Shown: positions 1 to 57,783, counted from the first letter of the stretch. The stretch is DNA of 64,000 nucleotides from a virus (IMGVR_UViG_3300042691_031247); one strand, 5' to 3'. The notes: generated by a model from the sequence alone, not told the origin. Numbers and translations: made by a program.

Positions 1-1060
1 CGGTGGCGCCTTGCGGTCCGGTCGCGCCTGTAGCGCCTGTGTTGCCGCACGGCCCTGTAGCGCCCACGGGACCTGTTTGACCGACAGCGCCGGTCTGGCC
101 TGTAACACCGGTCGGGCCTCTGGCGCCGGTTGCTCCCACTGGGCCAACAAGTCCTGTCGCGCCAGTCGCGCCGCGCGGACCAACTTGCCCTTGCGGGCCT
201 GTCTGTCCGATTAAACCAGCCGGGCCTGTGACGCCCGTCGCGCCGCGTGGTCCCACCGCGCCGGCTTGTCCAGTAGCGCCTGCTGGTCCAATTGGTCCGG
301 TCGCGCCTGTGGCGCCCTTGTCGCCTTTGACGCCAGAAACGCCGCGGGGTCCCGCTGCGCCCGCCGGTCCGACTGGACCCGTGGCGCCGGTCGCGCCTGT
401 AACGCCCGTAGCGCCCGTTGCGCCTTTCGCTCCGGTTGAGCCGGTCACGCCAGTCGCGCCGCGCGGACCAACCGGGCCAGTAGCGCCGGTCGCTCCTGTT
501 GCGCCAGTAGCACCTGTTGCGCCAGTGACACCTGTTGCGCCGCGCGGTCCGGTCGGACCTGTCGGACCTGTTACACCAATCGGTCCGCTAGGTCCTGTAA
601 CGCCGCGATCACCTTTATCGCCTTTTGCGCCGTTGGCGCCGGCAGTACCTGCGACGCCGGTCGCGCCGCGCAAGCCGGTTACACCTTGGTCACCTTTGTC
701 GCCCTTGTCGCCCTTGTCGCCCTTGTCGCCAGTGCAGCCGGTCGGGCCCATTTCGCCCTGTGGGCCAATAATGCTGAAACCGGGGAGACCCTGAATACCC
801 TGATCGCCTTTATCGCCCTTGTCTCCCTTGTCGCCCTTGTCGCCTTTAAGTCCGCGCTCGCCGGGTAAACCCGGGAGGCCCATAAAGCCTTGTGGTCCGC
901 GGGCGCCGGGAACCCCCTGATCTCCTTTATCGCCCTTGTCTCCCTTGTCGCCCTTGTCGCCTTTATCGCCTTTAGCTCCTTGATTGCCCGTGTCGCCTTT
1001 ATCGCCTTTAGCTCCTTGAGCGCCCGGTCCGCCGGTTGGGCCTTGCGGCCCCGGCGGACC
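1..1060 (-). repeat. Collagen-like Gly-X-Y coding repeat (~115 triplets, continues beyond the window)
   Basis: GDK/GAK/GPQ triplets at ~690-1060, then GAT/GPT/GPV triplets. One interruption seen (GFS-II-GPQ). Confidence 0.95.
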
Positions 1061-4000: not shown

Positions 4001-4324
4001 CGGCACTGGCACATTGATATCTAAGGTGACATCGTACCGGCACGGGTCGATATCTTGCCGCGTAATCGTCAGTTCGTTTTTTGGCGGCGGGCAACCGTCA
4101 TCACCCTCGTTGACAAAGTTAACGCCAATGGATGTCAGCGTGGAAAAATCGGGGCACTGCAGCCCGACCTCTGTAGGCGGCTCGCGCGGGATGATTGGCG
4201 ACTGGCAGCCGAAAATTGGTGGCGGCAGCGGCTCTATTTCGCATACATCGGAAATGAAGTCAAAATCCGCCTTGGGGACGGATTCAATCGGGCACTGCGA
4301 GTCTTTAAAAAGATTTTCAGCCAT
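1..4324 (-). CDS. Giant tail-fibre-like protein (>=1441 aa, 3'-partial): N-terminal Cys/Pro-rich ~60-aa beta repeats followed by a collagen (Gly-X-Y) domain
   Basis: ATG at 4324 lies 1 nt after the TAA of the upstream gene. Manual translation of most of the frame ([23 protein letters not shown]...[15 protein letters not shown]...GATGPQGAT) showed no stop before the window edge. It is missing from the ORF track because it has no stop in the window. Confidence 0.88.
2200..3950 (-). repeat. Tandem 180-bp (60-aa) coding repeats, consensus like [60 protein letters not shown]
   Basis: The PGDC anchor recurs at 2594, 2774, 2954, 3134, 3314, 3494 and 3674 (exact 180-bp spacing). Flanking units are at 2411 and 3884, and degenerate units continue to ~1200. 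Confidence 0.93.
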
Positions 4325-17629: not shown

Positions 17630-18451
17630 CTAAAAAGTGCTTTGTGTGTATTGCTTGTCTAACATCGCTTGAATTTTTGCTGCGCGTTGGCTTACGGCGC
17701 CGGGCGTAATGTTTAATCGGCGAGCAATCTCTTGCGTGCTCGTTTTGCGCCGGCCGTTGCGCCCCAGCGTCATGTCAGCAACAAGCTTGTCGATCGGACT
17801 CAGATCTTCGTAGACAAACTTAAACCACGCGTCCGCCGCTCGCGTGCTGTTCGGAATTGTGCTCGCGACGTCGCCGCCGTAGCTTTCTTCGTCCATAACT
17901 TCGCGTGTTGTCATGCCTTCAGATACAGGCTGATTGAACGCACGAATCTTTTGAATACGGCGCGTAGACAACCCGGTGGCGTCCGCGACTTCATCGTCGG
18001 TCGGCTCGCGGCCAAGCTGGTCACGCAGTTCGTTTTCGCTCTCGTTGAGTCGCGTGTAATCTAACCCTACTTGTTCCGGGATAGCGATAATGTTTTGATT
18101 CTGGGCCGATACCCGCCGGAGACTCTGCAGCTGCGACAGAAGATGTGTGCGCACATTCCCGCGGTTGGGGTCGTACGTGTCGAGCGCTTTTAACGCCATA
18201 AGCTTGGCTCGCGACCGGATTGTCGGGCTGGCGGCTTGCCCGGCGTAACTCATCACCGCGGTGTCGATTACAGGCTGAAGTGTCTGCAGCAGCGCCGAGC
18301 TGGTCTCGGGGGTTTTGTGGGCGGCCCACTGCGGGTACAGACTGTCAAACTCCGGGCTGACGCCGGCTGGTTTTTTAGCTGAAAACGGTGGCGGGGTGTC
18401 GCCCAGTATGGACGGCATGCCTTGCTGCTTTTTGTTATTTATATCGGTCAT
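17630..18451 (-). CDS. Phage sigma70-family RNA polymerase sigma factor
   Basis: Region 2 (ALKALDTYDPNRGNVRTHLLSQL), region 3 (LRDQLGREPTDDEVADATGLS) and region 4 HTH (STQEIARRLNITPGAVSQ). The likely start at 18451 overlaps the hub gene stop (ATGA). Confidence 0.9.
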   Translation of the reverse strand: MTDINNKKQQGMPSILGDTPPPFSAKKPAGVSPEFDSLYPQWAAHKTPETSSALLQTLQPVIDTAVMSYAGQAASPTIRSRAKLMALKALDTYDPNRGNVRTHLLSQLQSLRRVSAQNQNIIAIPEQVGLDYTRLNESENELRDQLGREPTDDEVADATGLSTRRIQKIRAFNQPVSEGMTTREVMDEESYGGDVASTIPNSTRAADAWFKFVYEDLSPIDKLVADMTLGRNGRRKTSTQEIARRLNITPGAVSQRAAKIQAMLDKQYTQSTF

Positions 18452-20070
18452 TTCAGCGTATATCCCGACCATTTTTGGCCTTTGTACAGCGGCGCAGTTT
18501 CTTGCGTAATTTTATTGGTTCTGAGATCTTCTAACTCGGTGCGAATGTACGACAAATCAAGCGACGTGCCGGCGAGGGCGCGTTCGGCGTTAATCGCGTA
18601 AGACACCTTCGTGACTGCCGCAATTAAATGCCCGCCGCCCTTACCAACGTCGCCGTCAGGGAGTTTAATTTTAACGATACTGCCCGGCGCAATATCAAAA
18701 CGCAGTTTACCAGACAGTTCGCCGTATCTTTGGCTTAAAAACTCGGTGTGGTAAAAGTGTTTTGCAAAACGTGTGCATACCTCGTTGTACATGGCATCGG
18801 CGAGTTCGGCTGGCTTTTTCCAGCCGGCCGGTAACGACGATTCACCTGTCTGTGGCGCAAGGCAGTCGCCCGGCCGTTTGCCGCCCTCGCCGGTCGTCGG
18901 CCCGCACATGATCGGCCACGGCGACGTGTTCGCCAACCACGATGGTAAGTCTTTAAATAGCTTTAAACCTTGCTGCGGTTTTTGCGCCGTAGCAGCGTCG
19001 GGCCACTGACCGGACGGCGTCGAAAACTTATCGCTGCTCTGCATGTCACCGCCGAGATGCAGCATAGGATCCATTTGCGCCGGCCAGAACACCGTCACGT
19101 TCTCGATCAGCTGGTGCATGGTCGAGTTAAAGTTGGCGTAGCTATAGTCGTCCGCGTGGATAGTGAGTTTGTCGCTACCGCTAAATTTAAGCCCGCCAAA
19201 AAAAGGAATGACGTACGCTTTGTCGATACACGGCGACACGGCAAAGAAAAACTGCGACGCATAATCACCGACGAGCGTGCTCCAAAATGTTGTATACGCA
19301 AACGATTCAACCGCGTCTTTGGTGAGCGCCTGCCGGACAGACATCTCGGCATTCAAACCGACGCCACTAATATCTAAACTCAATTTTGCCGGACCACTAA
19401 AACTAGGCGCTTCGTCGGGCATGCGCGCGAGGGCTTTGAGCGCGGCGTCATTTGGATCGTTTGACGACGTCTTCCACCCGGCCATGGTTTTAAAAATTGG
19501 TTTAATAACGTCGCCCCACAAATTCTGACTGATATTTGACTCAGTGATAATTTTTTCGTTGGCGTCGATAATCGGGACAGGTGACCAAACGTTTCCGTCG
19601 CTCGTTTGCAGCGCTTCGAAAGCTGCGTTCTGCGCCATCAAAAACGGCGCGTTTGGCGCCCACTTGCCATTAAGCGCAGACGAGTTATTCAGGTCGTCGA
19701 GCCAGTGCACGACGTTGATGACGTAATTGGCGCTATTGTGCGAACGCTGATACCCGACGCTGACCAAAAAACCTTCAAATATCTTTATCTCGCCGCTTTC
19801 CATTTTGTCTGTCTTACCGGCTGACGGTGTAATGGTTAAAAACACTTCAACCGGCGCGCGGGGCTGCAGCGCCACTTTTGCCATATGAATAGTCGCCGGT
19901 GCTCCGCCGCGGGCGTTTTGACCAACGGCGACAGTGATACTCGCGGTCGGTATTGTGTTCAGCGGAAACGACGCCGAAATCGCAACAATCTCATTACTAA
20001 AATCAAACCCAGCTATCTTTGCGCGGAGTTTAAATTTTGTGTGTACGTAATTCGGGTTCAGCTCGGTCAT
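18448..20070 (-). CDS. Baseplate hub protein (T4 gp27 / P2 gpD-like)
   Basis: 540 aa, with IVAISASFPLNTIPTASITV, IFEGFLVSV and GELSGKLRFDIAPGSIVKI...VTKVSYAI. Located downstream of the tape measure. Confidence 0.78.
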   Translation of the reverse strand: MTELNPNYVHTKFKLRAKIAGFDFSNEIVAISASFPLNTIPTASITVAVGQNARGGAPATIHMAKVALQPRAPVEVFLTITPSAGKTDKMESGEIKIFEGFLVSVGYQRSHNSANYVINVVHWLDDLNNSSALNGKWAPNAPFLMAQNAAFEALQTSDGNVWSPVPIIDANEKIITESNISQNLWGDVIKPIFKTMAGWKTSSNDPNDAALKALARMPDEAPSFSGPAKLSLDISGVGLNAEMSVRQALTKDAVESFAYTTFWSTLVGDYASQFFFAVSPCIDKAYVIPFFGGLKFSGSDKLTIHADDYSYANFNSTMHQLIENVTVFWPAQMDPMLHLGGDMQSSDKFSTPSGQWPDAATAQKPQQGLKLFKDLPSWLANTSPWPIMCGPTTGEGGKRPGDCLAPQTGESSLPAGWKKPAELADAMYNEVCTRFAKHFYHTEFLSQRYGELSGKLRFDIAPGSIVKIKLPDGDVGKGGGHLIAAVTKVSYAINAERALAGTSLDLSYIRTELEDLRTNKITQETAPLYKGQKWSGYTLK

Positions 20071-24400: not shown

Positions 24401-26306
24401 CGAGGTTAGGCGCAATCGTCTTTTTCTGTTCGGCAAACTCCTCGTCTGACATACCAGCCGGCTTAATCTTGTTGAAGTCTTCGCTGGCCATGGTGCCTTG
24501 CATAACCGCAGATTGGCGCTGCGCCAGCCGGCGCTGGTGCATGTAGGTTTGACCCTTGTAGGCATAGCCCTCCTGCACGAACGGCTGTAACCCCTGCCGA
24601 TCCATCTGGTACGCGCGGAAGAGGCGGTCCGACGCGCCGGATTCTTTTGCGAGTTGGTACATAGAGCCTACGCCGCCCTCGCCAACCATTTGCGCAAGAT
24701 TAAATTTTTGTCCCTTATACTCGAACTCTTCTTGATTGTTTCGGTATGCCTGTACGGCGGCTTCCATTTTGGTGCCGCGGTACTTGTCCGGGTTTTCTGT
24801 CACGAGCCTATTCAGCACAGCAATACTCTGCCCGCCGGCGCTCGCATCACCGCGGCGAGAGAAGTTAGCCATCACTTCATCGGCTTCTGCTTTTTGGAGC
24901 TTACCCGGGAGCATCTTGTTATACGCCCCGGAGTCGTGCATTGCTTGGCTACGCAGCATGTTTGTGTGCGCGCGCTCCAAACCGCTTTCGCGCGAGAGGC
25001 CCATCTGCACGCCCATCTCCTGCTCGTCACGCACGATCTTGTTTAATTCGGTCAGGCTGGTGTTAGAGTCTCGGGCCGCCATGCGCACTTGCCGCACCAG
25101 CTTTTCGAGTTTGCCCGGGGCTAGCGACGACGCGCCACCAGTTAAATGCTCAAGGCTTTTAATAAGCGCTTGAACCGGCGCGTTCTCTTGGCCATTGTCG
25201 CCAAAGATCTCGCGAATCGCGGCGATACTGCCCGTGTAGTCTTTAAGCGCTTTCGTGGTTCGCTGGGCGTCAACGGCGTTCGCGGCGGTGCTAAAACCGT
25301 CCATCTGCTCAATTTCAGAGACCGACTTGGCGCGCGGATCTTTGGCGGTGTGCCTGTCGATTTCTTGGAACGTCGAGCTGATGCGCTTCTTGTAGTCGCC
25401 CATCTTGTCGGCGAGCATGATCTTTTGTTCTTCTTCGGTGGCGTTCGCATAGTCGAAATTGCGCGACATTAAATCGTCATGCCCAAACTGCTCGGCAAGT
25501 CGGGTGATTGTCTTGTCGTCGCGCTTCGACGCGCTCATGGCTTTAACGCGCTCTGCCGGCGTGAGCGCGCCCAGCGCTTGCGGCAGCTGCCCCTTCTGGA
25601 ACAGGTGCTCCATCATTTCGCCGCTCGCTACGGCACCAAACCCGCGCATCTCGTTGAGGTTGGCGTCGGGGCCGTACATGTTTTGATATACATTCTGCGA
25701 AAACTGCCGCGTCGAGTTTTCGGACATCCGGCTGTCGCCTGTCGCGGCGTCGGCCCGGTAAAAGCCGATCCTGTTCGCGGCTGCGGCAGTAGCTGACGGG
25801 TCGCCGCGACGGCCGAACATAAGTCCTTCGTATGTTTCGGCGCCGATCTGGCTGGCGGCAAATTGTTTAAAAATTGGATTGTTTAATACGCGCGCCCCTG
25901 TGTTAGCCTGCTCGCGATCAAGCTGTGTGATTGGTTTGCCGCCGTTTGCGATCTGCTGCGCGGCTAGTATTTTTTTGGCGACCTCTTCGTTGCCGGCCAT
26001 GTGCGCGGCGTTAATAACCTGCGCGCCACCGCGCTGATACTGCGCAGCCGTGTGTTGGTCCATCACGTTCTGGCCGGGCATCTGGTGCATTAAAAACGCA
26101 TCTGGGCCGAAGGCGCCCTGCACCAGCTGCGGGCCGTACATGTTGGCCAGATAGCCAAACGCGTCGTCTACGTTTCTAGGATTCGTAAACGGCGAATAGG
26201 TCGGCGGGGCGTAGCGCAGAGCGTCTATAGACTGCGCCGCCGCCATGTCGTACTCGGACGGCGCGTTGCCAAAAAAGCCCGGATGAATGTACTGCGAAGC
26301 CTGCAT
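21420..26306 (-). CDS. Tape measure protein
   Basis: 1628 aa, helical and Ala/Gln/Glu/Lys-rich, Cys-free. Sits between the chaperone genes and the tube-initiator/hub genes. Confidence 0.85.
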   Translation of the reverse strand: MQASQYIHPGFFGNAPSEYDMAAAQSIDALRYAPPTYSPFTNPRNVDDAFGYLANMYGPQLVQGAFGPDAFLMHQMPGQNVMDQHTAAQYQRGGAQVINAAHMAGNEEVAKKILAAQQIANGGKPITQLDREQANTGARVLNNPIFKQFAASQIGAETYEGLMFGRRGDPSATAAAANRIGFYRADAATGDSRMSENSTRQFSQNVYQNMYGPDANLNEMRGFGAVASGEMMEHLFQKGQLPQALGALTPAERVKAMSASKRDDKTITRLAEQFGHDDLMSRNFDYANATEEEQKIMLADKMGDYKKRISSTFQEIDRHTAKDPRAKSVSEIEQMDGFSTAANAVDAQRTTKALKDYTGSIAAIREIFGDNGQENAPVQALIKSLEHLTGGASSLAPGKLEKLVRQVRMAARDSNTSLTELNKIVRDEQEMGVQMGLSRESGLERAHTNMLRSQAMHDSGAYNKMLPGKLQKAEADEVMANFSRRGDASAGGQSIAVLNRLVTENPDKYRGTKMEAAVQAYRNNQEEFEYKGQKFNLAQMVGEGGVGSMYQLAKESGASDRLFRAYQMDRQGLQPFVQEGYAYKGQTYMHQRRLAQRQSAVMQGTMASEDFNKIKPAGMSDEEFAEQKKTIAPNLANRMLDVVMNETKDMSSEEVDATLEKRGKEELSNYFQSKDGGNLGKRAADARAEKYFNALYGADPETRKENMRALYTESSAILQERTGVNIEGQKQIRDRGALANADAKQKVDERRAERFNKAALGTESTFSQRVGDELNNISSDNTRTRAESLKHVLNVMSEDEMLQKYAPDMQEGLVAAAKMYTSATITPEQIQKLHEEAQKNPTGPEAKKLKTMAGFKPDEELTAEQQQTLYARAQMAVGNTAAGDTPAQKEQNEAQRRRSTAVIKAYNTGKKEDVTAGARAMAESVLGPKADQKQIDAFAQAALDKDTTAFEKKMQGGFFGGKLSDAKQEEARAMSKALRASQEFGGLAAAGLNQTAQTVTEAQERPLAKTNEVTRDVSKQTFDQLEQNYDKRAYAALKPENVTAEQFDARRKDLMRKTADVAAGVAINEMGNQVDDTPEDRAQFMSKRLKEEMIKHFESEGSVPARAEEKAKKHLEAVFGSGDRGVQQLNNVYAKARETAKEQGLETFRSKQTNMDDPASVDAQIEALRKRGTDRGWMATDMRFSNDEDQQRWEELQKRKKELATPSAADDAKLTDAQQKVVDEISKDPTADNFTSAMYDTDKRKQLLSLPGGEARKLFDKFSPEDQQKGLDGLDGARTSMFLSKEERANVSRLHKTLAEHQATKVMERVKSGAPAPAAGGLTSQNLDPKQAAALHSSGLQQMMDLLSGGGGAQGQPSQQEQLQLVTQQMEDIASRGKPGWFTSEIQLSDEDKEKYTSLQRRKDEITSGDPLGTVTKQMEEIASRGKSGWFTSELQLGKEDRKKYDALSQRRKELESGDPLGTVTKQMEEIASRGKSGWFTSELQLSSDDKKQYDFLRQRRDEIKTLDPAQQQIDPMASIGGDAPSAGGEPPWASGASTGVTAIRQTQAAFVSSGREATSVAQQNAEQALRAQRGVQDNERGRDMQLTGTLVLKGLSEAVMQASGRHMEQTPDGTPVDMAGGTGSYHR
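21795..22235 (-). repeat. Three tandem 147-bp (49-aa) repeats in the tape measure C-terminus (GDPLGTVTKQMEEIASRGKSGWFTSELQL...)
   Basis: tccatctgct anchors at 21901, 22048 and 22195. Confidence 0.92.
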
Positions 26307-43515: not shown

Positions 43516-44499
43516 TTACTCTCCCGCGGACGAGCCGCCCAAGCTGTTAAGAAGCGCCGGGACGCTAAGTGCGCCAAGGACCGGAAGACCAATACCAGCC
43601 ATCCGTCCGCCAAAACGCGGTAACCGACGCAGCGCCTGTTGCAGCTGCGCGCCAGTCAAACGGCGGCCAGCCTTACCAACACCAGACGCCGGCTCTGACG
43701 CAACTGCGGCAAGGACGTTAGCTGTGTCGTCAGCGCCGTGGCCAAATAAGCCGCCTAAGAAGTTACCGCGCGCGGCGTTCGTCGCGCCGCGTACACGCGG
43801 GCCGACCGATGACGGCGTCGTCATACCAGCAGATTCAAGCGGCAGGCTAACGTCACGCGGCACGTAATCCGCGCCGCGGAGTCGGCGGATGCTGTTGAGC
43901 ATTTGCTGTGTGAACGACGGGTCGTGTGTGGCGTCGGGAAGGCCGCGTACATGCTTTGTGAGGTTTTCTGTAACACGTGACGGACCGGTATTTGCGCGCA
44001 GCTGTTCGATAGTGGGGCGAAGTTGCTTGGCGACGTCGTCACCGGACGCAAGAAACCGATCCATCTTGCCGTACGCGTCAATGGAGTTTGCTATTTGCCG
44101 CCCGCCGTAGCCGCCGACGCCAGCGCCCGCCAGATTAAGCAACGCGCCGCCAGAAGAGCCATCTTGGCCTTTTGCGGCAGCGATGGCGGGCGGCGGGTCA
44201 GTCTTGGTCAGCAGCATGTTCTTAGCCGCTGTCGCGCCAAGGCCGCCGATGCCGCCCATCAGCGCATAGTCGAGCATGGCGCGCCGTTTCTTTTTCCCCT
44301 GCAGCGCGCCGATTAAACCACCGGCGCCGGCACCGAGGGCGGCGTTCTGCAGATACGGGTTGCTCAGGATCTGAGACAGGTCAGCTTGCTTGCCGAGTGC
44401 CGCAGTTACTGTGGCTACTTTTTCAATTGCCGGATCGGGCGTGCGTGTAGCAATCGCCGACAAACCGCGGGCAAGCTCTTGTACGTCTGTTGTTTTCAT
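43516..44499 (-). CDS. Gly-zipper putative internal-head/ejection protein
   Basis: 327 aa, Cys-free. Contains AALGAGAGGLIGAL, GGIGGLGA and GAGVGGYGG, plus an N-terminal EKVA..GKQA. Confidence 0.55.
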   Translation of the reverse strand: MKTTDVQELARGLSAIATRTPDPAIEKVATVTAALGKQADLSQILSNPYLQNAALGAGAGGLIGALQGKKKRRAMLDYALMGGIGGLGATAAKNMLLTKTDPPPAIAAAKGQDGSSGGALLNLAGAGVGGYGGRQIANSIDAYGKMDRFLASGDDVAKQLRPTIEQLRANTGPSRVTENLTKHVRGLPDATHDPSFTQQMLNSIRRLRGADYVPRDVSLPLESAGMTTPSSVGPRVRGATNAARGNFLGGLFGHGADDTANVLAAVASEPASGVGKAGRRLTGAQLQQALRRLPRFGGRMAGIGLPVLGALSVPALLNSLGGSSAGE

Positions 44500-44501
44500 A
44501 A

Positions 44502-45875
44502 TTACAGTAACTCGCGGGCCTTCTGCTGCGCTTCGAGATTACTCTTCAAACTCTCAGCGCGGATCTTCTCCATTTCAATCAGCTGTTTGATATCAAAATC
44601 AGCGAGCTGACCGGCCTCTAGCCGTTTGCGCAAAAGAGCCTGCATAGCTGCACCTGAACCAGTAAAGTTAGGAGCAATTTCGGCAATTTGGTTGTACGCG
44701 GAAGCTACCTCGTGCGGGTCATAACCGGAGATAACCGGATCGTTCAGGATAAGGTCGTTTAGTACGCCGCGCGATTTGATTTGCTGCAGTTTGTTTTCGT
44801 GCTCGGCGTCGGACATCTGCGCAAACGCTTTTTGCTTTTGTTTGGTCGGGTCGGTCGATTTCCCGGCGTTGGCGTCCATTTCCGCTGCAAAACCAGACGG
44901 GCTCATGATCTTACCGAGATAACCCATCGTTCCGCTGTATGATGTCAGCGGGGGTGTTGTATCTGGTTTTTTTTTAACGGCTGCCACCTTAAGGGCGAGC
45001 GGGGCCGTTCTCGGATCGTGCAGAATTGAGCCCGTAACGGGGGTCGGCGTCACTTTCTGCGCCACGGCGGGCTGCGTTAACGCCGCGAGCTTGCTCGCTG
45101 CATTGTTGTGCAACTCCACCGCTTTGATCACGTTCTCGACCAGCGTTACCACCGGAAGCGCGCCGAAAAAGTTTTCGCTGCTAGCGGCCTGCTTTGTGAA
45201 GTGCGGGTAAACAGCCGCAACCTTGTTTAGCGTCGAAACACCGAGGTCGCCGAGCCGCAGACCAACTTCGCGCAGCGCGTCCGGGAACGCCATGTTGCCG
45301 GGTACACGAAAATACTGCGCCAACTCTTCCATAGCTGACGCCGCTTTGTGATGCGTCAGTGTGGCTAGCCGGCGGACTTCGTCGGCGTGGCGGGCGGCGG
45401 CCTGTTTTTCGCTATAGGCGCGTCGCGCGGCGGAGTGCTCGTCACGCGGCGGCGGTACATATGTGGGCGCCGGGAGCACGCTCTTGGCGGCGGCTGCTTT
45501 ATTCAAGCTCGCGTTGCGCCGATTAATGAAACCTGTCGGCGCAACAGCGTACTCTGTCGAGATGATGCTGTTGTTTGTTAACTCAGCCGATGTTTTAACG
45601 TGCTTGGGATATAGCGCGTCCATAACCACGTTTACGTCGGCAAGCTGGAAGTCTGCCGCTTTCTCTAACGTGTTTGCGCCAAGTTCGCGTTGCTTGTTGG
45701 TGCGTCCAGTGTTGTACGCATGCACCATAAGATTAATATGCCCGGACGGGATGCCCGCATCACTCGCGCTTTTAATAATCGCGTTGTTCGGGGTGGCGCC
45801 TTCGTTGACCAACGTGGCCGCACGCTCAATTGCGCTCAGCAATTTTTGCTCAGCTTCTTTACTTAATGCCCGCAT
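44502..45875 (-). CDS. Helical putative internal-head protein rich in K-x-A motifs
   Basis: 457 aa, Cys-free, about ten KxA motifs (KSAS, EKAA, NKAAA, EKQAA, HKAAS, NKVAA, TKQAA, SKLAA, LKVAA). Confidence 0.55.
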   Translation of the reverse strand: MRALSKEAEQKLLSAIERAATLVNEGATPNNAIIKSASDAGIPSGHINLMVHAYNTGRTNKQRELGANTLEKAADFQLADVNVVMDALYPKHVKTSAELTNNSIISTEYAVAPTGFINRRNASLNKAAAAKSVLPAPTYVPPPRDEHSAARRAYSEKQAAARHADEVRRLATLTHHKAASAMEELAQYFRVPGNMAFPDALREVGLRLGDLGVSTLNKVAAVYPHFTKQAASSENFFGALPVVTLVENVIKAVELHNNAASKLAALTQPAVAQKVTPTPVTGSILHDPRTAPLALKVAAVKKKPDTTPPLTSYSGTMGYLGKIMSPSGFAAEMDANAGKSTDPTKQKQKAFAQMSDAEHENKLQQIKSRGVLNDLILNDPVISGYDPHEVASAYNQIAEIAPNFTGSGAAMQALLRKRLEAGQLADFDIKQLIEMEKIRAESLKSNLEAQQKARELL

Positions 45876-49661: not shown

Positions 49662-51542
49662 TCACGGCTTCCACCCGCTTGTTGTGCCTGTTACGCCGAA
49701 CTGCTCGCCTTGGGCTAGAGCGGGCACATAACTGCTGCCCGCGGTATCGCTACTTAGGCCGCGTTGCACGCTATTCATAAGCCCTTTTTCTTGATACGAG
49801 CCCAGCATGCGGGTCATCCAGTCGGGGTCATTTGAGATATTCGCCATACCTCGCACCATTTCGGGCTGGAACGGCGGTGGTTCTTTGTGGGCTTGAATTG
49901 TCTTCACGCCGTATTTATTCAAATTGGTCAGCACGTTTTTACCGATCTTTGTGCCAATTGAATAGTGCAATACCGGTTTTTCAAGGTAATGCCCGGTTAA
50001 TGTGTTAGGCGCGGCTGATACGCTACCTTCACGCGGCGTCCAATTACGTTCAATTGCTGAGTAGGGCACTACATCGTCTGGCGCATAATCGCCGTACTCG
50101 TCATTCAAACGCACGTGATTAACAAGACCGCGCGCAAGTAGCTCGATGTTCCGTCGGTGGGCTGTAATGCCGCTATTGCCCATGACCTGCCGCATCGCCT
50201 GCACAAAGTAACGGCGGCCTTCTCCTACCCCTTTGTGCCGGACAATTTCAGCTGGATTTGGCATACCGTCGGATATGACGTCGCCGGCTTCAAGCTCGTC
50301 GCCTTTTTTAACAGCAAGCTTTCGCTCGGTCGGAACGTAGTGATCCTGCCCGTTAATCTGCACGTAATAACCGCCCTGCGGCGCTGGCCGAACTTCTTGT
50401 ACTCGCCCGTCAAGCTGCGAATGCGCTGCGCCGTCTGGATATTTTTTCGGGACCTGTACCAGCGCGTTAAGCGCTTTAAAGCCAGAAATCGCGCCCGCGC
50501 CACCAACGCCGCCCGAGTGCTTCGAGCTGATCTGGCTTTGCGTAACCGGCTCGGACAGCGCCTGTGCGGCGGTAATGCCTACGTAATCGCCGATGGGCGG
50601 TAGGCGCCCCTTCTCCCGGTAACCAACGTCTTTGGCGTAAACGCCGCCATCGCCCGGGCCGCCGACAATCGGACTGCGGACTAAGATATCTTTAGCGCCG
50701 CTTTCTTTCAGGTCTCGCAAGATCTTGGGCGTCAGAATTGTATTGCGTTTATACGGCCCGACAGCGCGAGCGAGTAACGCACCTTCGTTGTCTGGATCGT
50801 CTACGTCGGTGGGGTAGCCGCGCTCTTCCGCGGTCATGCGCCGCTCTTCATCGTCGTTATCATCGTCATCTGCCGTAACGAGCAGTCGGTGCGTCATCTG
50901 CGCAAGCTGTTTACCGTAGAACCCCGCGTCGGCGGTGGCCGTCTTCAGATCGATAACGCCCTTGCGGGTACCGAACGCGCCGGCAAAGTATTCAACCGGG
51001 CGCAAACCTTGGCTGTAGCCGCGCAACACCGGAATTGGAATCGGGTCGCCGCGGTGGTCGAGATACTGCATGTCAGCGCCAAGAATCGAGTTTAACTGAA
51101 ACTTGTTACCGACGCCGGCGCCAGCAATTTGATGCACCAGCGGATTATCTTGACCTTCCGCTTCTTTGTACACTTTTTCGAGAAGTTCTTGCTGCGCTGC
51201 TTGCGCAAGTTCGAGGAGCTTGATGTTGCGCTGTTTTTCGTCAAGCCGGCGATCGGCAAAGATGTCGCGCATCTGATTTTGCACACGCAGTTGCACGTGA
51301 CGTGCCGCAAGCGTCGGGCGAATGTCTTTAAGCCCGAACGATAAGCCGTTTGTCGTATACCCGGCGTCGCGGCCGATGTCGTGAAGCCGCTTCATGACTT
51401 CGCGGTATTTTTCTGGATGCGTTTTGGCTAGCTCAGTCGCGACACCGGACATTGTCTTTTTCGTCAACACACGATCGTAGTCGCGCATCTCGGGCGGCAA
51501 CGCTTCGTTAATCAGGAGTTGGCCGAGCGTTGTCTTCAGCAT
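49662..51542 (-). CDS. rpoC: Phage RNA polymerase beta' subunit, C-terminal half (funnel, bridge helix, trigger loop, jaw)
   Basis: Contains TTLGQLLINEALP, GLRPVEYFAGAFGTRKGVID..TADAGFYGKQL (bridge helix), GITAAQALSEPVTQ......HSGG (trigger loop) and HRRNIELLAR. Confidence 0.93.
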   Translation of the reverse strand: MLKTTLGQLLINEALPPEMRDYDRVLTKKTMSGVATELAKTHPEKYREVMKRLHDIGRDAGYTTNGLSFGLKDIRPTLAARHVQLRVQNQMRDIFADRRLDEKQRNIKLLELAQAAQQELLEKVYKEAEGQDNPLVHQIAGAGVGNKFQLNSILGADMQYLDHRGDPIPIPVLRGYSQGLRPVEYFAGAFGTRKGVIDLKTATADAGFYGKQLAQMTHRLLVTADDDDNDDEERRMTAEERGYPTDVDDPDNEGALLARAVGPYKRNTILTPKILRDLKESGAKDILVRSPIVGGPGDGGVYAKDVGYREKGRLPPIGDYVGITAAQALSEPVTQSQISSKHSGGVGGAGAISGFKALNALVQVPKKYPDGAAHSQLDGRVQEVRPAPQGGYYVQINGQDHYVPTERKLAVKKGDELEAGDVISDGMPNPAEIVRHKGVGEGRRYFVQAMRQVMGNSGITAHRRNIELLARGLVNHVRLNDEYGDYAPDDVVPYSAIERNWTPREGSVSAAPNTLTGHYLEKPVLHYSIGTKIGKNVLTNLNKYGVKTIQAHKEPPPFQPEMVRGMANISNDPDWMTRMLGSYQEKGLMNSVQRGLSSDTAGSSYVPALAQGEQFGVTGTTSGWKP

Positions 51543-51543
51543 G

Positions 51544-51783
51544 TCACGGCGTCCAGACGATGTTTTGCAACGATTTCGGCTTGAAGTCGGTTACAACAAC
51601 TGTTTTATTGATACCCAGCGCGCGTAACATTGGATGAAAATCTTTTTCACCCACGGTTGAATAAACAACCGCCTCGTCGACTTGAATGGCGACGAATAGC
51701 GGGTTACCTAGATCGTCCTCGACAACGACGCTGTGCGATTTCTGCTCAGCGGGTTGAAGATTGTGCTGCGTTTTAACCAGCAT
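51544..51783 (-). CDS. Small hypothetical protein between the RNAP genes
   Basis: 79 aa, beta-rich, Cys-free. Coupled to both neighbours. Confidence 0.6.
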   Translation of the reverse strand: MLVKTQHNLQPAEQKSHSVVVEDDLGNPLFVAIQVDEAVVYSTVGEKDFHPMLRALGINKTVVVTDFKPKSLQNIVWTP

Positions 51784-52501
51784 TGTCCGCAATACTCCGA
51801 ATCATGGCGGCGATAGCATTTGCTTTGATCTGCATTGCCGTGGGCGCATTCGGATTCGAGTAGCTGGGGCCGAACGGCCGGCCGATTGACGACGCAGACT
51901 TTTCAGCGCGGTCCCACCACGCCGCCTTAGACGGATCACCCTCTGGCGGTGCGGCGTTCGGCGGCATCGGGCCGCCCGGGGGCATCGGACCACCCGGCGG
52001 TTGCATACCGGCCTGCGCGTTGGGATCTTGCGCGGGAGGCGCCATCGGGCCGCCGGGCAGCGCGGTTTCAGCCGGCGGGGCGCCGGTTGTTCCGGGCGGG
52101 AGCACAAGTGACTCTGGCGGAACTTGCACACCCATCGCGTTCATAATGGCCGTGAGCTGCTGCTGCATGTTGTACAAGCGATAGTCGAGCATCTGCATCA
52201 TCTGCTCGGGCTTTAGTTTTTGCTGCGTGCCTGCAGGGGCTGCGCCCGGAGCGGCGGGTGCGGCGGGCGCTGCGGGAGGAGCAGCGGGCGGCGCCATACC
52301 CATAGCCGCAGGATCCACTGGCGGTGCAGCTGCTGCAGCAACAGCAGACGGATCGGCCGGCGGTACAGCCCCCATGGCGGCTGGGTCAACCGGCGGAGCA
52401 CCACCAGCAGCAGCGGGATCCACCGCCGCTCCGGGCACTAATGCGGATTTTTCAAAGCGCGCCTTCGCCAGCGCAATGAGTTCGGGGTTTACCGTGAACA
52501 T
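51773..52501 (-). CDS. Pro/Ala-rich low-complexity protein with a central helical segment
   Basis: 242 aa behind CATGGAGG. PAAP/PPGGPM tracts flank MMQMLDYRLYNMQQQLTAIMNAMG. Contains EKSA twice. Confidence 0.65.
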   Translation of the reverse strand: MFTVNPELIALAKARFEKSALVPGAAVDPAAAGGAPPVDPAAMGAVPPADPSAVAAAAAPPVDPAAMGMAPPAAPPAAPAAPAAPGAAPAGTQQKLKPEQMMQMLDYRLYNMQQQLTAIMNAMGVQVPPESLVLPPGTTGAPPAETALPGGPMAPPAQDPNAQAGMQPPGGPMPPGGPMPPNAAPPEGDPSKAAWWDRAEKSASSIGRPFGPSYSNPNAPTAMQIKANAIAAMIRSIADNAG

Positions 52502-52521
52502 ACAGCCTCCATGTTTAACGA

Positions 52522-55500
52522 TTACGTATTATCTTCCACAATATGAACCGGGGTGTCCACCTCTATTTCGCCGCGCCGGTACGCCTGCATGGCATCCTGC
52601 TTGCTGCGAAACACGCGTGGTTTAGCTTTTTTACTGATTCGACTGGACGCTAAGTATAACCCAGTCTGGTAGTCTTTGTTTGGGACGTAGTGCGCCTTGA
52701 ACGTCGAAGCTGCAAACAGGTTCTTACTCGGCAGCATCTTTTCCACGGCTTCTTTAGCGGCGTCTTCGGTACTTGGGACGTGATACTGCATCGCGTCGCC
52801 GTCGAAGTCAGCGCCGAACCCCTTCGTGATTACGGGGTTTACTTCCATGACTTTGTTCTTAGTTAACTTGGGGTAAAACGCCATCATGCCGTAACGGTGA
52901 AGCACGGGCGCGCGGTTAATAACAATAGGCCGCGACGACATCTGCCGATCTAGCTCGGCGCCAGCTTCTTTCGTCTTGTCTTCCACGGCCTGCATCGCCT
53001 GCATGCGCGGAAGACCCCTGCGAACAAGACCGCGCACAACGAACGGCTTGTAAATATCCCACGCTTTCTCTTCCGGCAACGCAACCTCGTCCATGTCGAG
53101 ATCGGGATTCGGTGTAATGACCGCGCGCCCCACGAGGTCGACCGTGGAGCTAAGAAGCTTACGCTGCACGGTGCCGTACTTTGGCGAGTTACCGAACACG
53201 TGCCGCAGAAAACCTTTCACATTGCGCTCAACGTTTTTCGGCTGCTGCGGCTCACCCAGTCCAGTGACAGCCTTCATCGAGTCATACACGCTCAGGCGTT
53301 CGTCGCCGTAATCGGCCAGCGCGCCAGACGCCTCTTTCAGTGTGTCGTTCGCATCAAGCAGTTCTTTGTACAGATAGTTTGCGTCAGCGACGAGCGGCAG
53401 CTTCTTACTGCCCATCGTGCTCACGGGGCGGAAGAGTGGCGGCAAGACGGGGACTTTACTAATCATCCAGTCTTTGGGGTGCACGCCGGTTGTTTCCGCG
53501 CTCTTTAAGAACCCCAACCGGCGCACGGCAGCGTCGCGAAGCGTCTTGCGCCCGGATTTAATATCTAAACGCGCCTGCTCGATAGCCTTTGGTAGGTTAA
53601 TTCGTTCAAGCGCGGCCTTGATCGCCGTGGGCCCTGTTTTGTCGCCCAGCTGTTCGCGACCAGCCAGCACGCCGCGGAACTGCTTTTCCGTCATCCCCAG
53701 TACGCGTCGAATCGGGTCTTCCATGACCGGATTCGGCAGCGGCTCGTGCAGCGTGATCTTGCTCCACCTGTTACCGCCGTGGCCGCCCGTCAAAGCCTCA
53801 TCAAATAAACCGCCGGCAATAGGCTTGAGGCGCCCCTTCCAGTCAACGGTCTCAGAGCTTTTCAATTCACGCGGACCGGCCAGCTCGTCGATGTCTTTGT
53901 CGGTCATGGCCATGAGGTTCGACCGCGTGCCTTTGCGCACAACGTTAATACCAGACGCCCTAAGCTGCCCGACGAACTTCTCGTATACGTGTGGCACCTT
54001 GGGTAGCGGCGGAGTGTAGCCGGCCATGAACTGCGACCAGTATTCGGGATTTGCTTGGCCGCGCACCATCTTGGCGTCGCGAATAACCTTACCGGCGCCG
54101 TGCGAAAGCAGCGCGCCAAGATCCAGCATGCCGACGCGCTTGGCGCCTTCGCTGCCGCCCTTCGCCGGAGTGCCTTCGGCTGTATATGCACCCATCGACC
54201 GGCCCTGCGCTTTTGATTCGCTGGTATGGTGCAGCTTCATGAAAAACCGGCTGCCGGTCAGCACACCGCCGATTTTCCGCCCGGTTTCTGCGTCGATGAC
54301 GTCTTCGGTATCGGACAGCCCGTGCTTTGCCAGTTCTTTCTGCGCAAACTCAATGAGGTCGTTTTTGTTATCAAAGTCCTTGAGCTTGTACGGCGAGCCG
54401 GTCTTTGCTGCGACCTTGCCTAGTGCGGCTTCAATCACCTGCGCCGGGTTAATACGGCTGATCAGACCCAGCGGCGAGACGAGCACTTCAAAAGGATTGC
54501 CGTCGCGGTCTTTGGGCATCTGGTCGTCAGGTACGATCTCTGCGACGACGCCCTTGTCGCCAAAGCGCCCGGTGAGCTTGTCGCCAACGTCCATGGGCGC
54601 TTGGTTTTTAACGACAACGCTCACACCCTTCTTGGTGTGCATAACGTCGGTCACGATACCCGGCGCATGATGCTCCCACGTGATTGTGTCGTTTGTAAAG
54701 TTACCAGCACGCCCACGATGCACTTTGCCGTACACCGTGTCTTTCTTTTTGGCCACGAGCACGAGCGGGTCACCAAACTTGACCTCAGTACCTTTTTTAA
54801 TCGCGCCGTCGTCGTCAAAGTTGTCAAGATACTTTTTGTCGTACTCAGTCGGGAACAAACTCACGAACGCCTTCTTGCCAACGTGAGTGTTGTCGTCCCA
54901 CTCGGCTTCGTGCTGATACATGTGCTCAGACGTTAGCCGCTTGGATGCGGATTCAGAGATAACTACCGCATCTTCGTAGTTCTTGCCGCGGAACGGCAGA
55001 TAGGCTGTACGCAGATTCAAGCCGAGCGCTGCGCTGCCGTTTTGATCTGTAAAGTTCGACCGGGCGAGCAGTTGTCCGGGCTCTACCGTGTCGCCGGGCT
55101 TCACAATCGGCGTCTGGTGTAAGAACGTCTTACGGTTGTACGGCATTTCGTTATACAAATCGATCGTCTTCTTATTACCATCTTTGTCGCGCAGTACGAT
55201 GCCGTCAGGTGTGACATCGACGACTTGCGCGCGTTCGGTAGCCCGGGTGGCGCCAAGCTTTTCGCCCATCTCGTCTTCGTGCGACATGCTCTCGTCATCG
55301 GCCTTGGCGGATTGCAGCAACGGCGCCTCGGCGTTTACTAGCGGGAGCGCTTGCGTAAACATACGGCTACCCATGATCACGCGGTGGCCTTTGATCATGG
55401 ACTTAATCGGCACCATGTTGGATAACGTCGAAAACGTTGAATCCATGTTCGGCAGGCTGAACTGCGCCTCTTTACGCGGAACATACTTGAGCTTGCCGTT

Positions 55501-56925
55501 GACGAGCGCTGCCACCACGGGAAGTCCGTTATCTTCTTCGCCGGGAAACACGAGCGGCGTATCGGCCAGCTCTTGCGGCGTCTTGTACACCTTATCGCCG
55601 GTTTTCATATCAACAACCGGCGTATACACCTTGCCGTCGGAGCCCTTCATAGCGCCGCGGGCAAAGCGCATGTCAACACCCACCTTGCCGGATTCTGGCG
55701 TGCGAAGATAGTCGATAAACCCAAGGTGGCTGGGCTGCACAGAACGTGACTCGGCAGGCACGGCGTCCAGCGAGCCAATGCCGCCTTCGCCCATACGGGT
55801 CACACGCGTCTGGTGGTCAAAGATCTCCGCAGGATTAATTTCTTCTAAACTCGACCCCAGACCGCTGCCAATAAGCGCAGCTGAGATTGCCTTGTCGAAT
55901 ACGCCCGACGGAATGTGATCAATTGACTTCTTCGCCGTAGCTTTCCAGAGCAGCTTGTTAAGCGATTGGCGGTCTTTGGTAAAACGCTCGGCAATGAGGT
56001 CCTCCGGGCCGACGACGGACTGATACACCATGTTGTCTCGGTCGTCGCTCTCGGCCTCGCGGCGATTCACTGCGATTAATTTCTTAGTGATCGCCAGAAT
56101 CGTCTCCGGCGTCATGTTCTTGTATTCAGAACCCAGTGTGCGCCGGGTGACTTCCGGGTCGAGTTCGGTCTTGGCAAACTCGGCCGCGATCGCCTGCGCT
56201 TTGGCAATAGCGTCTGCGCCGGCAACTGGTTTGTTTACAAGGCGGGCGTAGATCTTGTCCATCGTGCCAGCATCGCCCTTCTCCATGTTGACGGCGGTGA
56301 TCTCATTGCCCCACGCTTTGCGGATGTCCTGATCTGACACGCCCATGGACTTGAGCAGCGGCATGAGCGGGATCTGCGCCTGACCAATGCTGATTTTGAA
56401 CACGCCGGTTTTGGGGTCGAGGAAGTACCGGTGCGAACGGCCCTTACCCGGTAGCGTGTTTACGTGCGCCTCAATCTCGCCGTTGTCTTTCTCGCGGGTA
56501 AACACGCCGGGGCGCAACCGCATCTGGTGCGCAAGGGTGTACTCGACGCCGCCGTTAACGAACGTGCCCGAGTCGGTGAGATACGGCACGTGGGCGATCG
56601 TGGCGCGGCGCTGGCCGACAGGCTGCCCGGTTTTGTTATCTGTAAGCGTCCACGTACCTTGCAGCCGGCGGGCAAGTGTCCCTCTGGAAAGGACAGCTTT
56701 CTTCTGATCTGACCTTGTGAAGCGCTCAGGTCCCGAATACCCGACGTCTTGCAGCTGCAACGTATACAGGTCATTCTGCAGCGGCTTGAGCCCCTGCGCG
56801 CTCGTAAGCGCCTGATTAAAAATGTTATCCCGCATCACGCCAACGTCGCCGAACGTGCGCATCGTGGGCGCGACCGGCGCGGGTGTCATCGGCGATTTTA
56901 AGTCGGGCAGTTCAGGGGTCGGCAT
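52522..56925 (-). CDS. rpoB/rpoC: Phage RNA polymerase: fused beta subunit plus beta' N-terminal half, containing the catalytic DFDGD
   Basis: Beta motifs RTPESGKVG, MGSRMFTQA, KNYEDA, GDKLTGRFGDKGVV and GAKRVGMLD. Beta' motifs follow: ETVDWKGRLKPIAGGLF, VLPPLFRP, LLSSTVDLVGRAVI, NRAPVLHR and GADFDGD (52795-52815). Confidence 0.95.
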   Translation of the reverse strand: MPTPELPDLKSPMTPAPVAPTMRTFGDVGVMRDNIFNQALTSAQGLKPLQNDLYTLQLQDVGYSGPERFTRSDQKKAVLSRGTLARRLQGTWTLTDNKTGQPVGQRRATIAHVPYLTDSGTFVNGGVEYTLAHQMRLRPGVFTREKDNGEIEAHVNTLPGKGRSHRYFLDPKTGVFKISIGQAQIPLMPLLKSMGVSDQDIRKAWGNEITAVNMEKGDAGTMDKIYARLVNKPVAGADAIAKAQAIAAEFAKTELDPEVTRRTLGSEYKNMTPETILAITKKLIAVNRREAESDDRDNMVYQSVVGPEDLIAERFTKDRQSLNKLLWKATAKKSIDHIPSGVFDKAISAALIGSGLGSSLEEINPAEIFDHQTRVTRMGEGGIGSLDAVPAESRSVQPSHLGFIDYLRTPESGKVGVDMRFARGAMKGSDGKVYTPVVDMKTGDKVYKTPQELADTPLVFPGEEDNGLPVVAALVNGKLKYVPRKEAQFSLPNMDSTFSTLSNMVPIKSMIKGHRVIMGSRMFTQALPLVNAEAPLLQSAKADDESMSHEDEMGEKLGATRATERAQVVDVTPDGIVLRDKDGNKKTIDLYNEMPYNRKTFLHQTPIVKPGDTVEPGQLLARSNFTDQNGSAALGLNLRTAYLPFRGKNYEDAVVISESASKRLTSEHMYQHEAEWDDNTHVGKKAFVSLFPTEYDKKYLDNFDDDGAIKKGTEVKFGDPLVLVAKKKDTVYGKVHRGRAGNFTNDTITWEHHAPGIVTDVMHTKKGVSVVVKNQAPMDVGDKLTGRFGDKGVVAEIVPDDQMPKDRDGNPFEVLVSPLGLISRINPAQVIEAALGKVAAKTGSPYKLKDFDNKNDLIEFAQKELAKHGLSDTEDVIDAETGRKIGGVLTGSRFFMKLHHTSESKAQGRSMGAYTAEGTPAKGGSEGAKRVGMLDLGALLSHGAGKVIRDAKMVRGQANPEYWSQFMAGYTPPLPKVPHVYEKFVGQLRASGINVVRKGTRSNLMAMTDKDIDELAGPRELKSSETVDWKGRLKPIAGGLFDEALTGGHGGNRWSKITLHEPLPNPVMEDPIRRVLGMTEKQFRGVLAGREQLGDKTGPTAIKAALERINLPKAIEQARLDIKSGRKTLRDAAVRRLGFLKSAETTGVHPKDWMISKVPVLPPLFRPVSTMGSKKLPLVADANYLYKELLDANDTLKEASGALADYGDERLSVYDSMKAVTGLGEPQQPKNVERNVKGFLRHVFGNSPKYGTVQRKLLSSTVDLVGRAVITPNPDLDMDEVALPEEKAWDIYKPFVVRGLVRRGLPRMQAMQAVEDKTKEAGAELDRQMSSRPIVINRAPVLHRYGMMAFYPKLTKNKVMEVNPVITKGFGADFDGDAMQYHVPSTEDAAKEAVEKMLPSKNLFAASTFKAHYVPNKDYQTGLYLASSRISKKAKPRVFRSKQDAMQAYRRGEIEVDTPVHIVEDNT

Positions 56926-56928
56926 GAA

Positions 56929-57783
56929 TCACCCCGCCTGCGATTGCTCAACTTGCTGCTTCAGCGCGATGATCTCGTCGGGATCGACGTACGTCGGCAA
57001 AATGCCGGAGATGCGCGCTTTCGACTTCGCGGCTTCTTCAACCGCTTTGGCGCGGGAACGCTCGCGCGCACGATCGTACATTAACTTGGCAGCCAGACCG
57101 CCGAGTCCCAAACCACCAGCAACGTATGTGCCGCCGAGCGCCGCCGGCACCCGTTTCGCTGTGTCGTACGCGCTGGTGAGCCAGTCGAGCAGCGCCTTCT
57201 TCTCCGCAGCTGCTTTTTCGCTCGCGGTGTCGTATGCGCTGTCGAGCGCTTTGGCCGGGCCGCCGGTCAGCGCGTCGTAGTACTCTTTTTCAGCAGCCGC
57301 GATTTGCTCCTGCTGATCGCGCTTCTTTTTGCGCTTGTGCAGCGTCTCGATCAGTTTGTAACCGCCGAGTCCGCCCAAAGCCGCGGCGCCAAACGTCGCG
57401 CCCGTACCAAATGACGAACGAATCACGTTCGGGTCGTACGAGTTCTGGCTTTTGCTTGTGGCGGGCGTGAACGGCCGTAAAAAACTGAGCACTGAATCTG
57501 GCAGCATTTTGCCAACGCCTTCAGTGACGTTGTCGTATATGCCAGCGGCTTTTGTCTCGGTAATCTTGGGCGTTTCTTCTTCGTCTTCTTCGTACTTCGG
57601 CTTGTTTAGCGCCTGAGAAAGCCCGCGGGCCAGATAATACAAACTAGCAGCAGTAGCACCAGCGCCAAGCCCGCCAACACCAGTACGGATAATACGATTG
57701 CCCCAGAAACGCTGGTAATCTTGGGCGGTAGGTTGGCCAACAGGGGCTGCGGGTGGGATGGCATTGTTTGCTAGTTTTTCCAT
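56929..57783 (-). CDS. Gly-zipper putative ejection/internal protein
   Basis: 284 aa, Cys-free. Three hydrophobic Gly-rich segments each followed by basic or coiled-coil stretches. Contains MEKLA, TKAAG and EKAAA. Confidence 0.55.
   Translation of the reverse strand: MEKLANNAIPPAAPVGQPTAQDYQRFWGNRIIRTGVGGLGAGATAASLYYLARGLSQALNKPKYEEDEEETPKITETKAAGIYDNVTEGVGKMLPDSVLSFLRPFTPATSKSQNSYDPNVIRSSFGTGATFGAAALGGLGGYKLIETLHKRKKKRDQQEQIAAAEKEYYDALTGGPAKALDSAYDTASEKAAAEKKALLDWLTSAYDTAKRVPAALGGTYVAGGLGLGGLAAKLMYDRARERSRAKAVEEAAKSKARISGILPTYVDPDEIIALKQQVEQSQAG

Follow-up and report, generated by a model that had tools for sequence, protein, structure and literature searches.

The DNA analysed here (64,000 nucleotides, hereafter the window) comprises bases 14719-78718 of a 198,101-bp IMG/VR virus record (IMGVR_UViG_3300042691_031247), which CheckV rates as 97% complete and in which nearly all genes are carried on the minus strand. 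Its source is an uncultured freshwater phage with its own bacterial-type RNA polymerase (RNAP), encoded as two proteins: one fuses the complete beta subunit with the N-terminal half of beta', and the other supplies the C-terminal half of beta' (beta'C). The two genes are not adjacent, and two other open reading frames (ORFs), of 242 and 82 amino acids, lie in the gap between them. The features of the locus are as follows, in window coordinates and with the evidence for each in brackets.

52522..56925, minus strand: fused RNAP gene, complete beta plus the N-terminal half of beta', 1467 amino acids, 0 Cys (ORF, translation, Pfam and PDB matches).
53929..56925, minus strand: beta module, residues 1-999 (BLASTP to Escherichia coli beta 81-1337; junction alignment).
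53911..53928, minus strand: linker of six residues, TRSNLM, joining beta to beta' (E. coli aligned with five phage sequences).
52525..53910, minus strand: N-terminal half of beta', residues 1006-1467, with the clamp, lid, rudder region and catalytic double-psi barrel (BLASTP to E. coli beta' 160-540; PDB matches).
52795..52815, minus strand: catalytic Mg-binding loop GADFDGD, residues 1371-1377; E. coli NADFDGD, 458-464 (motif position).
51773..52501, minus strand: Pro/Ala-rich, Cys-free ORF between the RNAP halves, 242 amino acids (translation).
51544..51792, minus strand: small ORF between the RNAP halves, 79-82 amino acids (translation).
49662..51542, minus strand: C-terminal half of beta', 626 amino acids, 0 Cys, starting MLKTTLGQ, with the bridge helix and trigger loop (Pfam Rpb1_5; PDB match; split alignment).

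An earlier reading of the window, made without database searches (hereafter the sequence-only reading), had proposed a multisubunit phage RNAP with a beta::beta'(N) + beta'(C) architecture. Both genes lie exactly at the coordinates that it gave, and Pfam, PDB and E. coli alignments agree on the architecture. In Pfam searches, the long chain matches the beta families Rpb2_2, Rpb2_3 and Rpb2_6 at residues 143-915 and then the beta' families Rpb1_1 and Rpb1_2 at residues 1127-1395, and the short chain matches Rpb1_5 (PF04998, E=7.2e-24). Likewise, phmmer comparisons with PDB sequences aligned residues 46-1018 of the long chain with residues 40-1076 of a cyanobacterial beta of 1100 residues, its residues 1070-1463 with beta' residues about 142-540, and the short chain with residues 663-1184 of Mycobacterium tuberculosis beta'. 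The beta double-psi barrel region is present (PF00562, E=2.4e-50), with the conserved Lys of the GRFGDKG motif at residues 786-792, as is the beta' barrel with the DFDGD metal-binding triad (PF00623, E=9.6e-25). Both catalytic double-psi barrels are on the long chain, and the short chain carries the remainder of beta', including the jaw, bridge helix, trigger loop and the clamp portion at the C-terminus.

We aligned the window chain and four relatives with beta and beta' from E. coli MG1655. Beta ends with LRASGINVVRKG (residues 988-999), which aligns to the final residues of E. coli beta (..IRSLGINIELEDE, 1342) and, after the linker, beta' begins at about E. coli residue 24. The peptide that the sequence-only reading had quoted for a junction near position 53930 falls at residues 991-1008 (window 53902-53955). 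At the other end, the fused chain terminates at about E. coli beta' residue 568 and its partner resumes at about 569, three residues ahead of TTVGR (572), in agreement with the start at TTLGQ, around residue 570, proposed earlier. The break occupies one and the same alignment position in the window, in its relative L038, in Salmonella phage Arash and in Vibrio phage D69. None of the five aligned phage sequences retains the N-terminal zinc ribbon (E. coli about 67-100), and the two zinc sites of beta' (Cys4 clusters) are missing from the window chains, neither of which contains any Cys. The catalytic loop reads GADFDGD in the window and L038, AADYDGD in Arash and D69, and NADFDGD in the unsplit relative L043, the conserved Asn before DFDGD being replaced by Gly in the window.

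The fused-and-split RNAP is real, ancient and widespread, and is shared by hundreds of phages. Near-identical DNA occurs in 20 runs from 15 freshwater metagenome studies, and the regions 52394-56339 and 53577-55164 are matched by Logan contigs of three independent runs, which show 0 differences, 0 indels and 0 joints and extend across the beta/beta' junction as well as the stop codon that ends the fused gene. A word-indexed protein search retrieved more than 120 clusters of equal length and at least 76% identity, many of them on contigs of about 200 kb. When 1.84 billion protein representatives were searched with the junction-spanning part of the chain, all of the best 150 (44-61% identity) spanned the junction and ended 0-19 residues from the stop of the window gene. 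IMG/VR contributed two sets of 39 and 80 loci (41-98% identity) with the same fusion and the same stop, in which the beta'C gene begins 0.6-5.3 kb downstream on the same strand; 80 out of 80 loci in the second set are both fused and split. Among 50,697 records of cultured phages, the layout appears in four: Arash and the Vibrio phages D69, D148 and D181. We give virtually no credence to an assembly chimera, a frameshift error or a decaying pseudogene. Apart from extra interruptions in a few relatives (L079 and L099), we found nothing in favour of such an artefact, and against it stand the contigs that are identical through the junction and the stop codon, the recurrence of the same ORF ends, together with conserved residues at the junction, across over 200 divergent sequences, and the 100% peptide coverage of Arash gp206, the fused chain of this phage (PMC10585845). 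Independent-run contigs and homologues rule out an assembly artefact; a 3% sample of the raw reads of run X22 contained none from this phage and does not bear on the question.

The interruptions in those relatives are of several kinds. Locus L099 (L099:359-7203) has a 1.8-kb out-of-frame insertion at about residue 930 of the fused chain, and in L079 (L079:1551-7188) the reading frame shifts at about residue 800; candidate explanations are an intron, a free-standing endonuclease, a frameshift and a further split. In the Vibrio phages D181 and D148 (OZ196140.1 and OZ196545.1), the fused-gene match lies in two pieces across 5.4 kb (144173-149575), with an annotated homing endonuclease beneath, and the fused gene of D69 is an uninterrupted 4.5 kb.

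By scanning IMG/VR for DNA coding for NADFDGDQM, we found relatives in which beta' is not broken. Complete unsplit beta::beta' chains, at about 33-35% identity along the entire fused chain, are present in L177 and L222 (2060 amino acids) and in L043 (2599 amino acids with an intein); partial ORFs of the same kind occur in L163, L204 and L174, and a more distant form in L209. We then built a beta' tree of 36 sequences and 871 columns (IQ-TREE, LG+C20+F+G4), rooted with E. coli and three bacterial-type sequences, for which the pieces of split beta' were rejoined. All the viral beta' sequences form one clade, supported with 100/100 against the four bacterial sequences, that consists of two sister lineages. 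The first (100/100) contains all the separate-gene enzymes, including two published contigs of the phage RNAP lineage mReC: L191, which is Ga0075125_10000139, with an agreeing beta' length, and L146, which is Ga0180432_10000070. The second (95/89) contains all the beta-fused enzymes; within it, the split forms, including those of the window, Arash and D69, are monophyletic (95/94), and the unsplit forms are a basal grade, paraphyletic around the split clade. Monophyly of the unsplit forms is rejected by the approximately unbiased test (p=8.7e-5).

This topology, with its bacterial root, indicates that the fusion came first and that the split happened once. It shows that the ancestor, as reconstructed from present-day sequences, carried a fully fused beta::beta' gene that was later split a single time, just before the TTxG motif, and that the break site has since served variable genes as a slot. 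New in this analysis are the unsplit relatives, the direction of the change and its anchoring to mReC. The phylogeny that the sequence-only reading had proposed as a check is thereby provided for beta', with bacterial and mReC sequences, and puts the window in a fused clade that is sister to mReC.

In the whole 198-kb genome, Rpb2_6 and Rpb1_2 match at one locus each, which amounts to one barrel for beta and one for beta'. No match to the profiles for alpha (PF01000, PF01193) or omega (PF01192) was found anywhere in these 198 kb, and the controls gave matches in 14 of 14 genomes; the sequence-only reading had seen neither gene in the window and had suggested searching the rest of the genome, and its observation holds at both scales. 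We also considered and discarded a second set of RNAP genes and an RNAP of the T7 type, given the single beta and beta' loci; the search for the latter (PF00940) was run without a positive control. Genome-wide searches for sigma regions 2 and 4 revealed only one sigma-like gene, with a clear region 3 and weak regions 2 and 4:

17630..18472, minus strand: sigma-70-family factor, 280 amino acids, 0 Cys (Pfam Sigma70_r3, E=4.6e-10; phrog_351).

This gene is homologous to Arash gp10 (tblastn E=4e-16) and, as in Arash, it sits beside homologues of the structural proteins gp13 and gp14 (baseplate genes).

A third component is a helicase of the SNF2 type. The genome encodes one of 710 amino acids at genome positions 94414-96546, beyond the window, which is an orthologue of Arash gp217. 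Orthologues of this helicase lie between the RNAP halves in L082 (L082:7188-8681) and L088 (L088:7189-10677), and directly after beta'C in Arash. A SNF2 helicase has also been linked to phiKZ-type RNAP genes by Iyer et al. (PMC7824862), a link that the SNF2/DEAD-type helicase accompanying the fused RNAP genes brings to mind.

Several observations bear on where the enzyme might act. In purified virions of Arash, gp206 yielded the most spectra of all proteins, 3516 compared with 1333 for the major capsid protein, and these virions also hold gp216 (the beta'C chain), sigma gp10 and helicase gp217; the authors allow for carry-over of abundant proteins (PMC10585845). The homologues of these four proteins in the window phage contain 0 Cys each, with a genome mean of 1.49%; for the 2093 residues of the two RNAP chains, the probability of this happening by chance is about 2e-14. 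Insert-free homologues elsewhere are mostly Cys-free as well. Additionally, the RNAP genes are co-oriented and lie in a block with identifiable baseplate- and tail-like genes. A protein set that is free of Cys may be a mark of ejected proteins, and the RNAP is probably carried inside the virus particle, judging from this analysis. Other Cys-free proteins, of 1628, 327, 457, 284 and 846 amino acids, are encoded at window positions 21420-26306, 43516-45875 and 56929-57783 and at genome positions 118059-120599; in contrast, a tail-region protein (window 2-4324) has 69 Cys in 1510 amino acids.

The mechanism that we propose would run as follows. The two chains would be the phage's own and only bacterial-type RNAP core, in which the covalent link between beta and beta' would replace the alpha dimer as assembly platform and, consequently, neither alpha nor omega would be needed. 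Promoters would be recognised by the phage's own sigma-70-like factor. RNAP, sigma and SNF2 helicase would be late products that are packaged in the capsid and injected along with the DNA, and the injected enzyme would begin transcribing without help from the host polymerase. As the phage encodes no further polymerase, later genes are probably also transcribed by this enzyme. Together, the Arash virion proteomics, the Cys-free homologues and the position within a block of structural genes favour a packaged, injected enzyme. On balance, we think it likely that this RNAP is packaged in the virion and injected, that it relies on sigma and that it can dispense with alpha and omega. We put forward more tentatively, as a serious possibility, the complete picture of a minimal two-chain, zinc-free, Cys-free and sigma-dependent RNAP that has no need of alpha or omega and is packaged with sigma and the SNF2 helicase as an injectable kit, its gene recording a fusion and then a single split that serves as a cargo slot.

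The same genes could instead encode a polymerase that acts only inside the cell, transcribing middle and late genes after the host RNAP has read the early ones, in which case the signal in Arash virions would be the carry-over that its authors mention (PMC10585845). Such an enzyme would fit with the presence of a single RNAP set, as opposed to the separate virion and non-virion enzymes of phiKZ-type phages (PMC7598289), and the phage sigma could redirect the host core. Nevertheless, we consider an exclusively intracellular role unlikely, because gp206 exceeds the capsid protein so clearly in spectra (3516 vs 1333) and is accompanied in virions by gp216, sigma and helicase, because the four homologues are Cys-free against a background of 1.49%, and because the RNAP genes are within the late structural block. 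It is more doubtful still that the enzyme is a hybrid in which the two chains assemble on a host alpha dimer, perhaps with omega. The profile searches detected neither alpha nor omega in the phage, yet all cellular RNAPs require the alpha platform (PMC7598289), and the sequences are nearer, in this sampling, to bacterial beta and beta' than to the beta' ORFs of the type of giant eukaryotic viruses (NCLDV) that came from the same motif scan. However, the non-virion RNAPs of phiKZ and AR9 function without alpha or omega (PMC7598289), a platform becomes largely superfluous once beta and beta' are covalently linked, and a packaged enzyme cannot rely on host alpha unless alpha is packaged too; moreover, hosts as diverse as Salmonella, Vibrio and freshwater bacteria argue against dependence on the alpha of any one of them.

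Several points weigh against a packaged, sigma-dependent enzyme without alpha and omega, or against the evolutionary order that we assign to its gene. The evidence for packaging comes from a cultured relative with 32% identity, whose authors allow carry-over, and the absence of Cys is circumstantial. Profile searches leave room for unrecognisable analogues of alpha and omega, for example the two gap ORFs, or for host alpha. With Gly in place of Asn in the catalytic loop and both zinc sites gone, full activity is assumed. K-mer enrichment in 85 upstream regions gave no convincing phage promoter consensus, and there were no RNA runs among the runs matching the sequence. The tree, in turn, is based on beta' alone and on a limited outgroup of four bacterial sequences, with compositional heterogeneity flagged and one long basal branch (L209).

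Both ORFs in the gap are conserved. The 242-amino acid ORF is retained in relatives down to about 51% identity and its position is conserved; it had no Pfam or PHROG match and nothing usable in the protein atlas. The small ORF (51544-51792) has homologues, with 28-38% identity, in the same gap of the distant relatives L094, L115 and L090. Its AF2 model (pLDDT 84) comprises five strands and one helix, with no PDB fold match by Foldseek. We considered the gap ORFs as analogues of omega or alpha and discarded them, as they gave no Pfam, PHROG or atlas signal and the small protein is a beta sheet with a helix, unlike the helical omega. An origin of the split from a homing endonuclease found no support: the ten largest gap ORFs from ten relatives contain 0 endonuclease domains, two being SNF2 helicases and eight having no match. 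In L038, a 52%-identical relative, beta'C is 1206 amino acids long (L038:14084-17704), with a C-terminal extension of about 580 amino acids that is Pro/Asn/Gly-rich and of low complexity, with a helical end; the extension has no homologue in the genome of the window and resembles the 242-amino acid Pro/Ala-rich gap ORF in composition.

Next to the fused gene, on its upstream side, there is one further Cys-free ORF:

56929..57783, minus strand: Cys-free ORF immediately upstream of the fused gene, 284 amino acids (ORF list, Cys count).

This ORF has no family match in Pfam or PHROG; Cys-free ORFs of similar size precede the fused gene in L010 (297 amino acids) and L038 (266 amino acids). Almost all of 30 neighbouring proteins lack a PHROG or Pfam annotation, and the largest ORF of the genome, of 3718 amino acids, lies beyond the window (genome 123876-135032).

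The fused gene is also a hot spot for inteins, with representatives of up to 3350 amino acids that contain as many as five in-frame inserts and have Cys almost only in these inserts (P0124-P0273). For instance, a LAGLIDADG intein directly follows the catalytic NADFDGD in L043 (L043:7887-15686), a Hint/LAGLIDADG intein is located in beta'C of L010 at about residues 323-330 (L010:13329-16388), and L025 (L025:7980-13424) and L037 share a 346-amino acid insert at residue 412.

To our knowledge, the alpha-less multisubunit phage RNAPs described so far (phiKZ/AR9, crAss-like phages and P23-45) have diverged strongly, and no sigma can be recognised for them. The fused lineage can be aligned motif by motif with bacterial beta, beta' and sigma-70, yet it lacks alpha, omega, zinc sites and Cys, and its subunit boundaries have moved. 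A core that is bacterial-like but stripped and re-partitioned in this way is a tractable natural experiment on what core assembly and promoter recognition need, and the fused-and-split RNAP is also a candidate for a compact orthogonal transcription system. The radiation of virus-specific RNAPs that stands beside mReC is extended, with a clear polarity of change in gene architecture, and the predictions can be tested directly in cultured members, Arash and Vibrio phage D69.

Phage multisubunit RNAPs are known as a kind, but the fused-and-split layout is essentially undescribed. We found no description of it in the literature searched, including the papers on Arash (PMC10585845) and on mReC (PMC7481178), jumbo-phage RNAP and genomics reviews and a 2026 review. 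The main text of the mReC paper (Weinheimer & Aylward 2020, PMC7481178) describes no fusion or split of phage RNAP genes. Its Supplementary Data 2 contains separate genes only, of about 1360+1005 amino acids (type a) or about 1010+905 amino acids (type b), and sheet 1 has no entry with a pattern of 1467/626 or of 2060 amino acids; this sheet is the relevant list, as sheet 2 also includes NCLDV and bacteria. The window shares with mReC a bacterial-type beta and beta' encoded by a caudovirus and placed apart from the sampled bacteria; indeed, it comes from a tailed-phage contig with baseplate- and tail-like genes, and its beta and beta' are found by cellular profiles. The two differ in that mReC has separate beta and beta' genes, with both types in some contigs, whereas the window lineage has a single, fused set. 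The sequence-only reading had suggested that the window might belong to mReC; since all published entries are separate-gene enzymes without a matching length pattern, and since the window is outside the clade of L191 and L146, it is better assigned to a sister lineage. Published mReC contigs with paralogous beta/beta' sets a and b, such as Ga0180432_10000070 (L146), recall the two-polymerase strategy of phiKZ-type phages.

Arash (gp206, 1525 amino acids; gp216, 606 amino acids) and the Vibrio phages D69, D148 and D181 are in the same monophyletic split clade as the window. They share with it the junction, the break (E. coli about 564-569), an own sigma with baseplate genes next to it and the SNF2 helicase partner. 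The short linker, the MTD(K/E)D motif at the junction, a stop at about 564-568 and a downstream beta'C on the same strand, starting before TTxG, are likewise found in the window. Identity to the window is only about 32%, Arash and D69 keep 1-4 cysteines, unlike the Cys-free window chains, and the Arash halves have nine genes, on both strands, between them. In the Arash paper (PMC10585845), the two genes are named beta and beta', with no remark on the fusion. The sequence-only reading had named two ways in which it could fail, an artefact of assembly or a layout already standard in a described clade: the former is excluded by contigs and homologues, and the latter is true in part, because the layout is standard in a very large natural clade that includes a published phage, although no paper that we came across, that on Arash included, sets out the architecture.

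The unsplit chains of L177, L222 and L043 have the same junction with its MTD(K/E)D motif, lack the zinc ribbon and belong to the same beta' lineage; their beta' is continuous, with about 20 residues bridging the position where the window gene stops, and keeps NADFDGD. In the fused rpoB-rpoC genes of Helicobacter and Wolbachia, the beta C-terminus is covalently joined end-to-end to the beta' N-terminus, and the window is joined in the same manner. Those are, however, cellular enzymes of full length that have alpha, omega and the zinc sites, whereas in the window there is no alpha or omega and beta' is broken, the gene stopping after residue 1467 and two ORFs preceding beta'C; complete rpoB-rpoC fusions are found in L177 and L043.

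In cyanobacteria and plastids, as in the window, beta' is broken shortly past the catalytic double-psi barrel (PMC7598289), but cyanobacteria keep beta separate. Residue 1461, approximately, of the fused chain corresponds to residues 553-558 of a cyanobacterial gamma of 624-626 residues, so gamma reaches about 65-69 residues further and the cyanobacterial break is slightly downstream, as had been noted from the sequence. The same reading held that phiKZ and AR9 split elsewhere; for beta' this has to be corrected, since their break, too, comes after this catalytic barrel, at the position of the cyanobacterial break (PMC7598289). These phages differ from the window in splitting beta into two or three polypeptides, in having two enzyme sets and in having no recognisable sigma (PMC7598289, PMC7824862), whereas the window phage has an intact, fused beta, a single set and a sigma-70-like gene. 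The location of the phiKZ/AR9 and cyanobacterial breaks after the barrel (PMC7598289) indicates that beta' has been broken repeatedly in this region.

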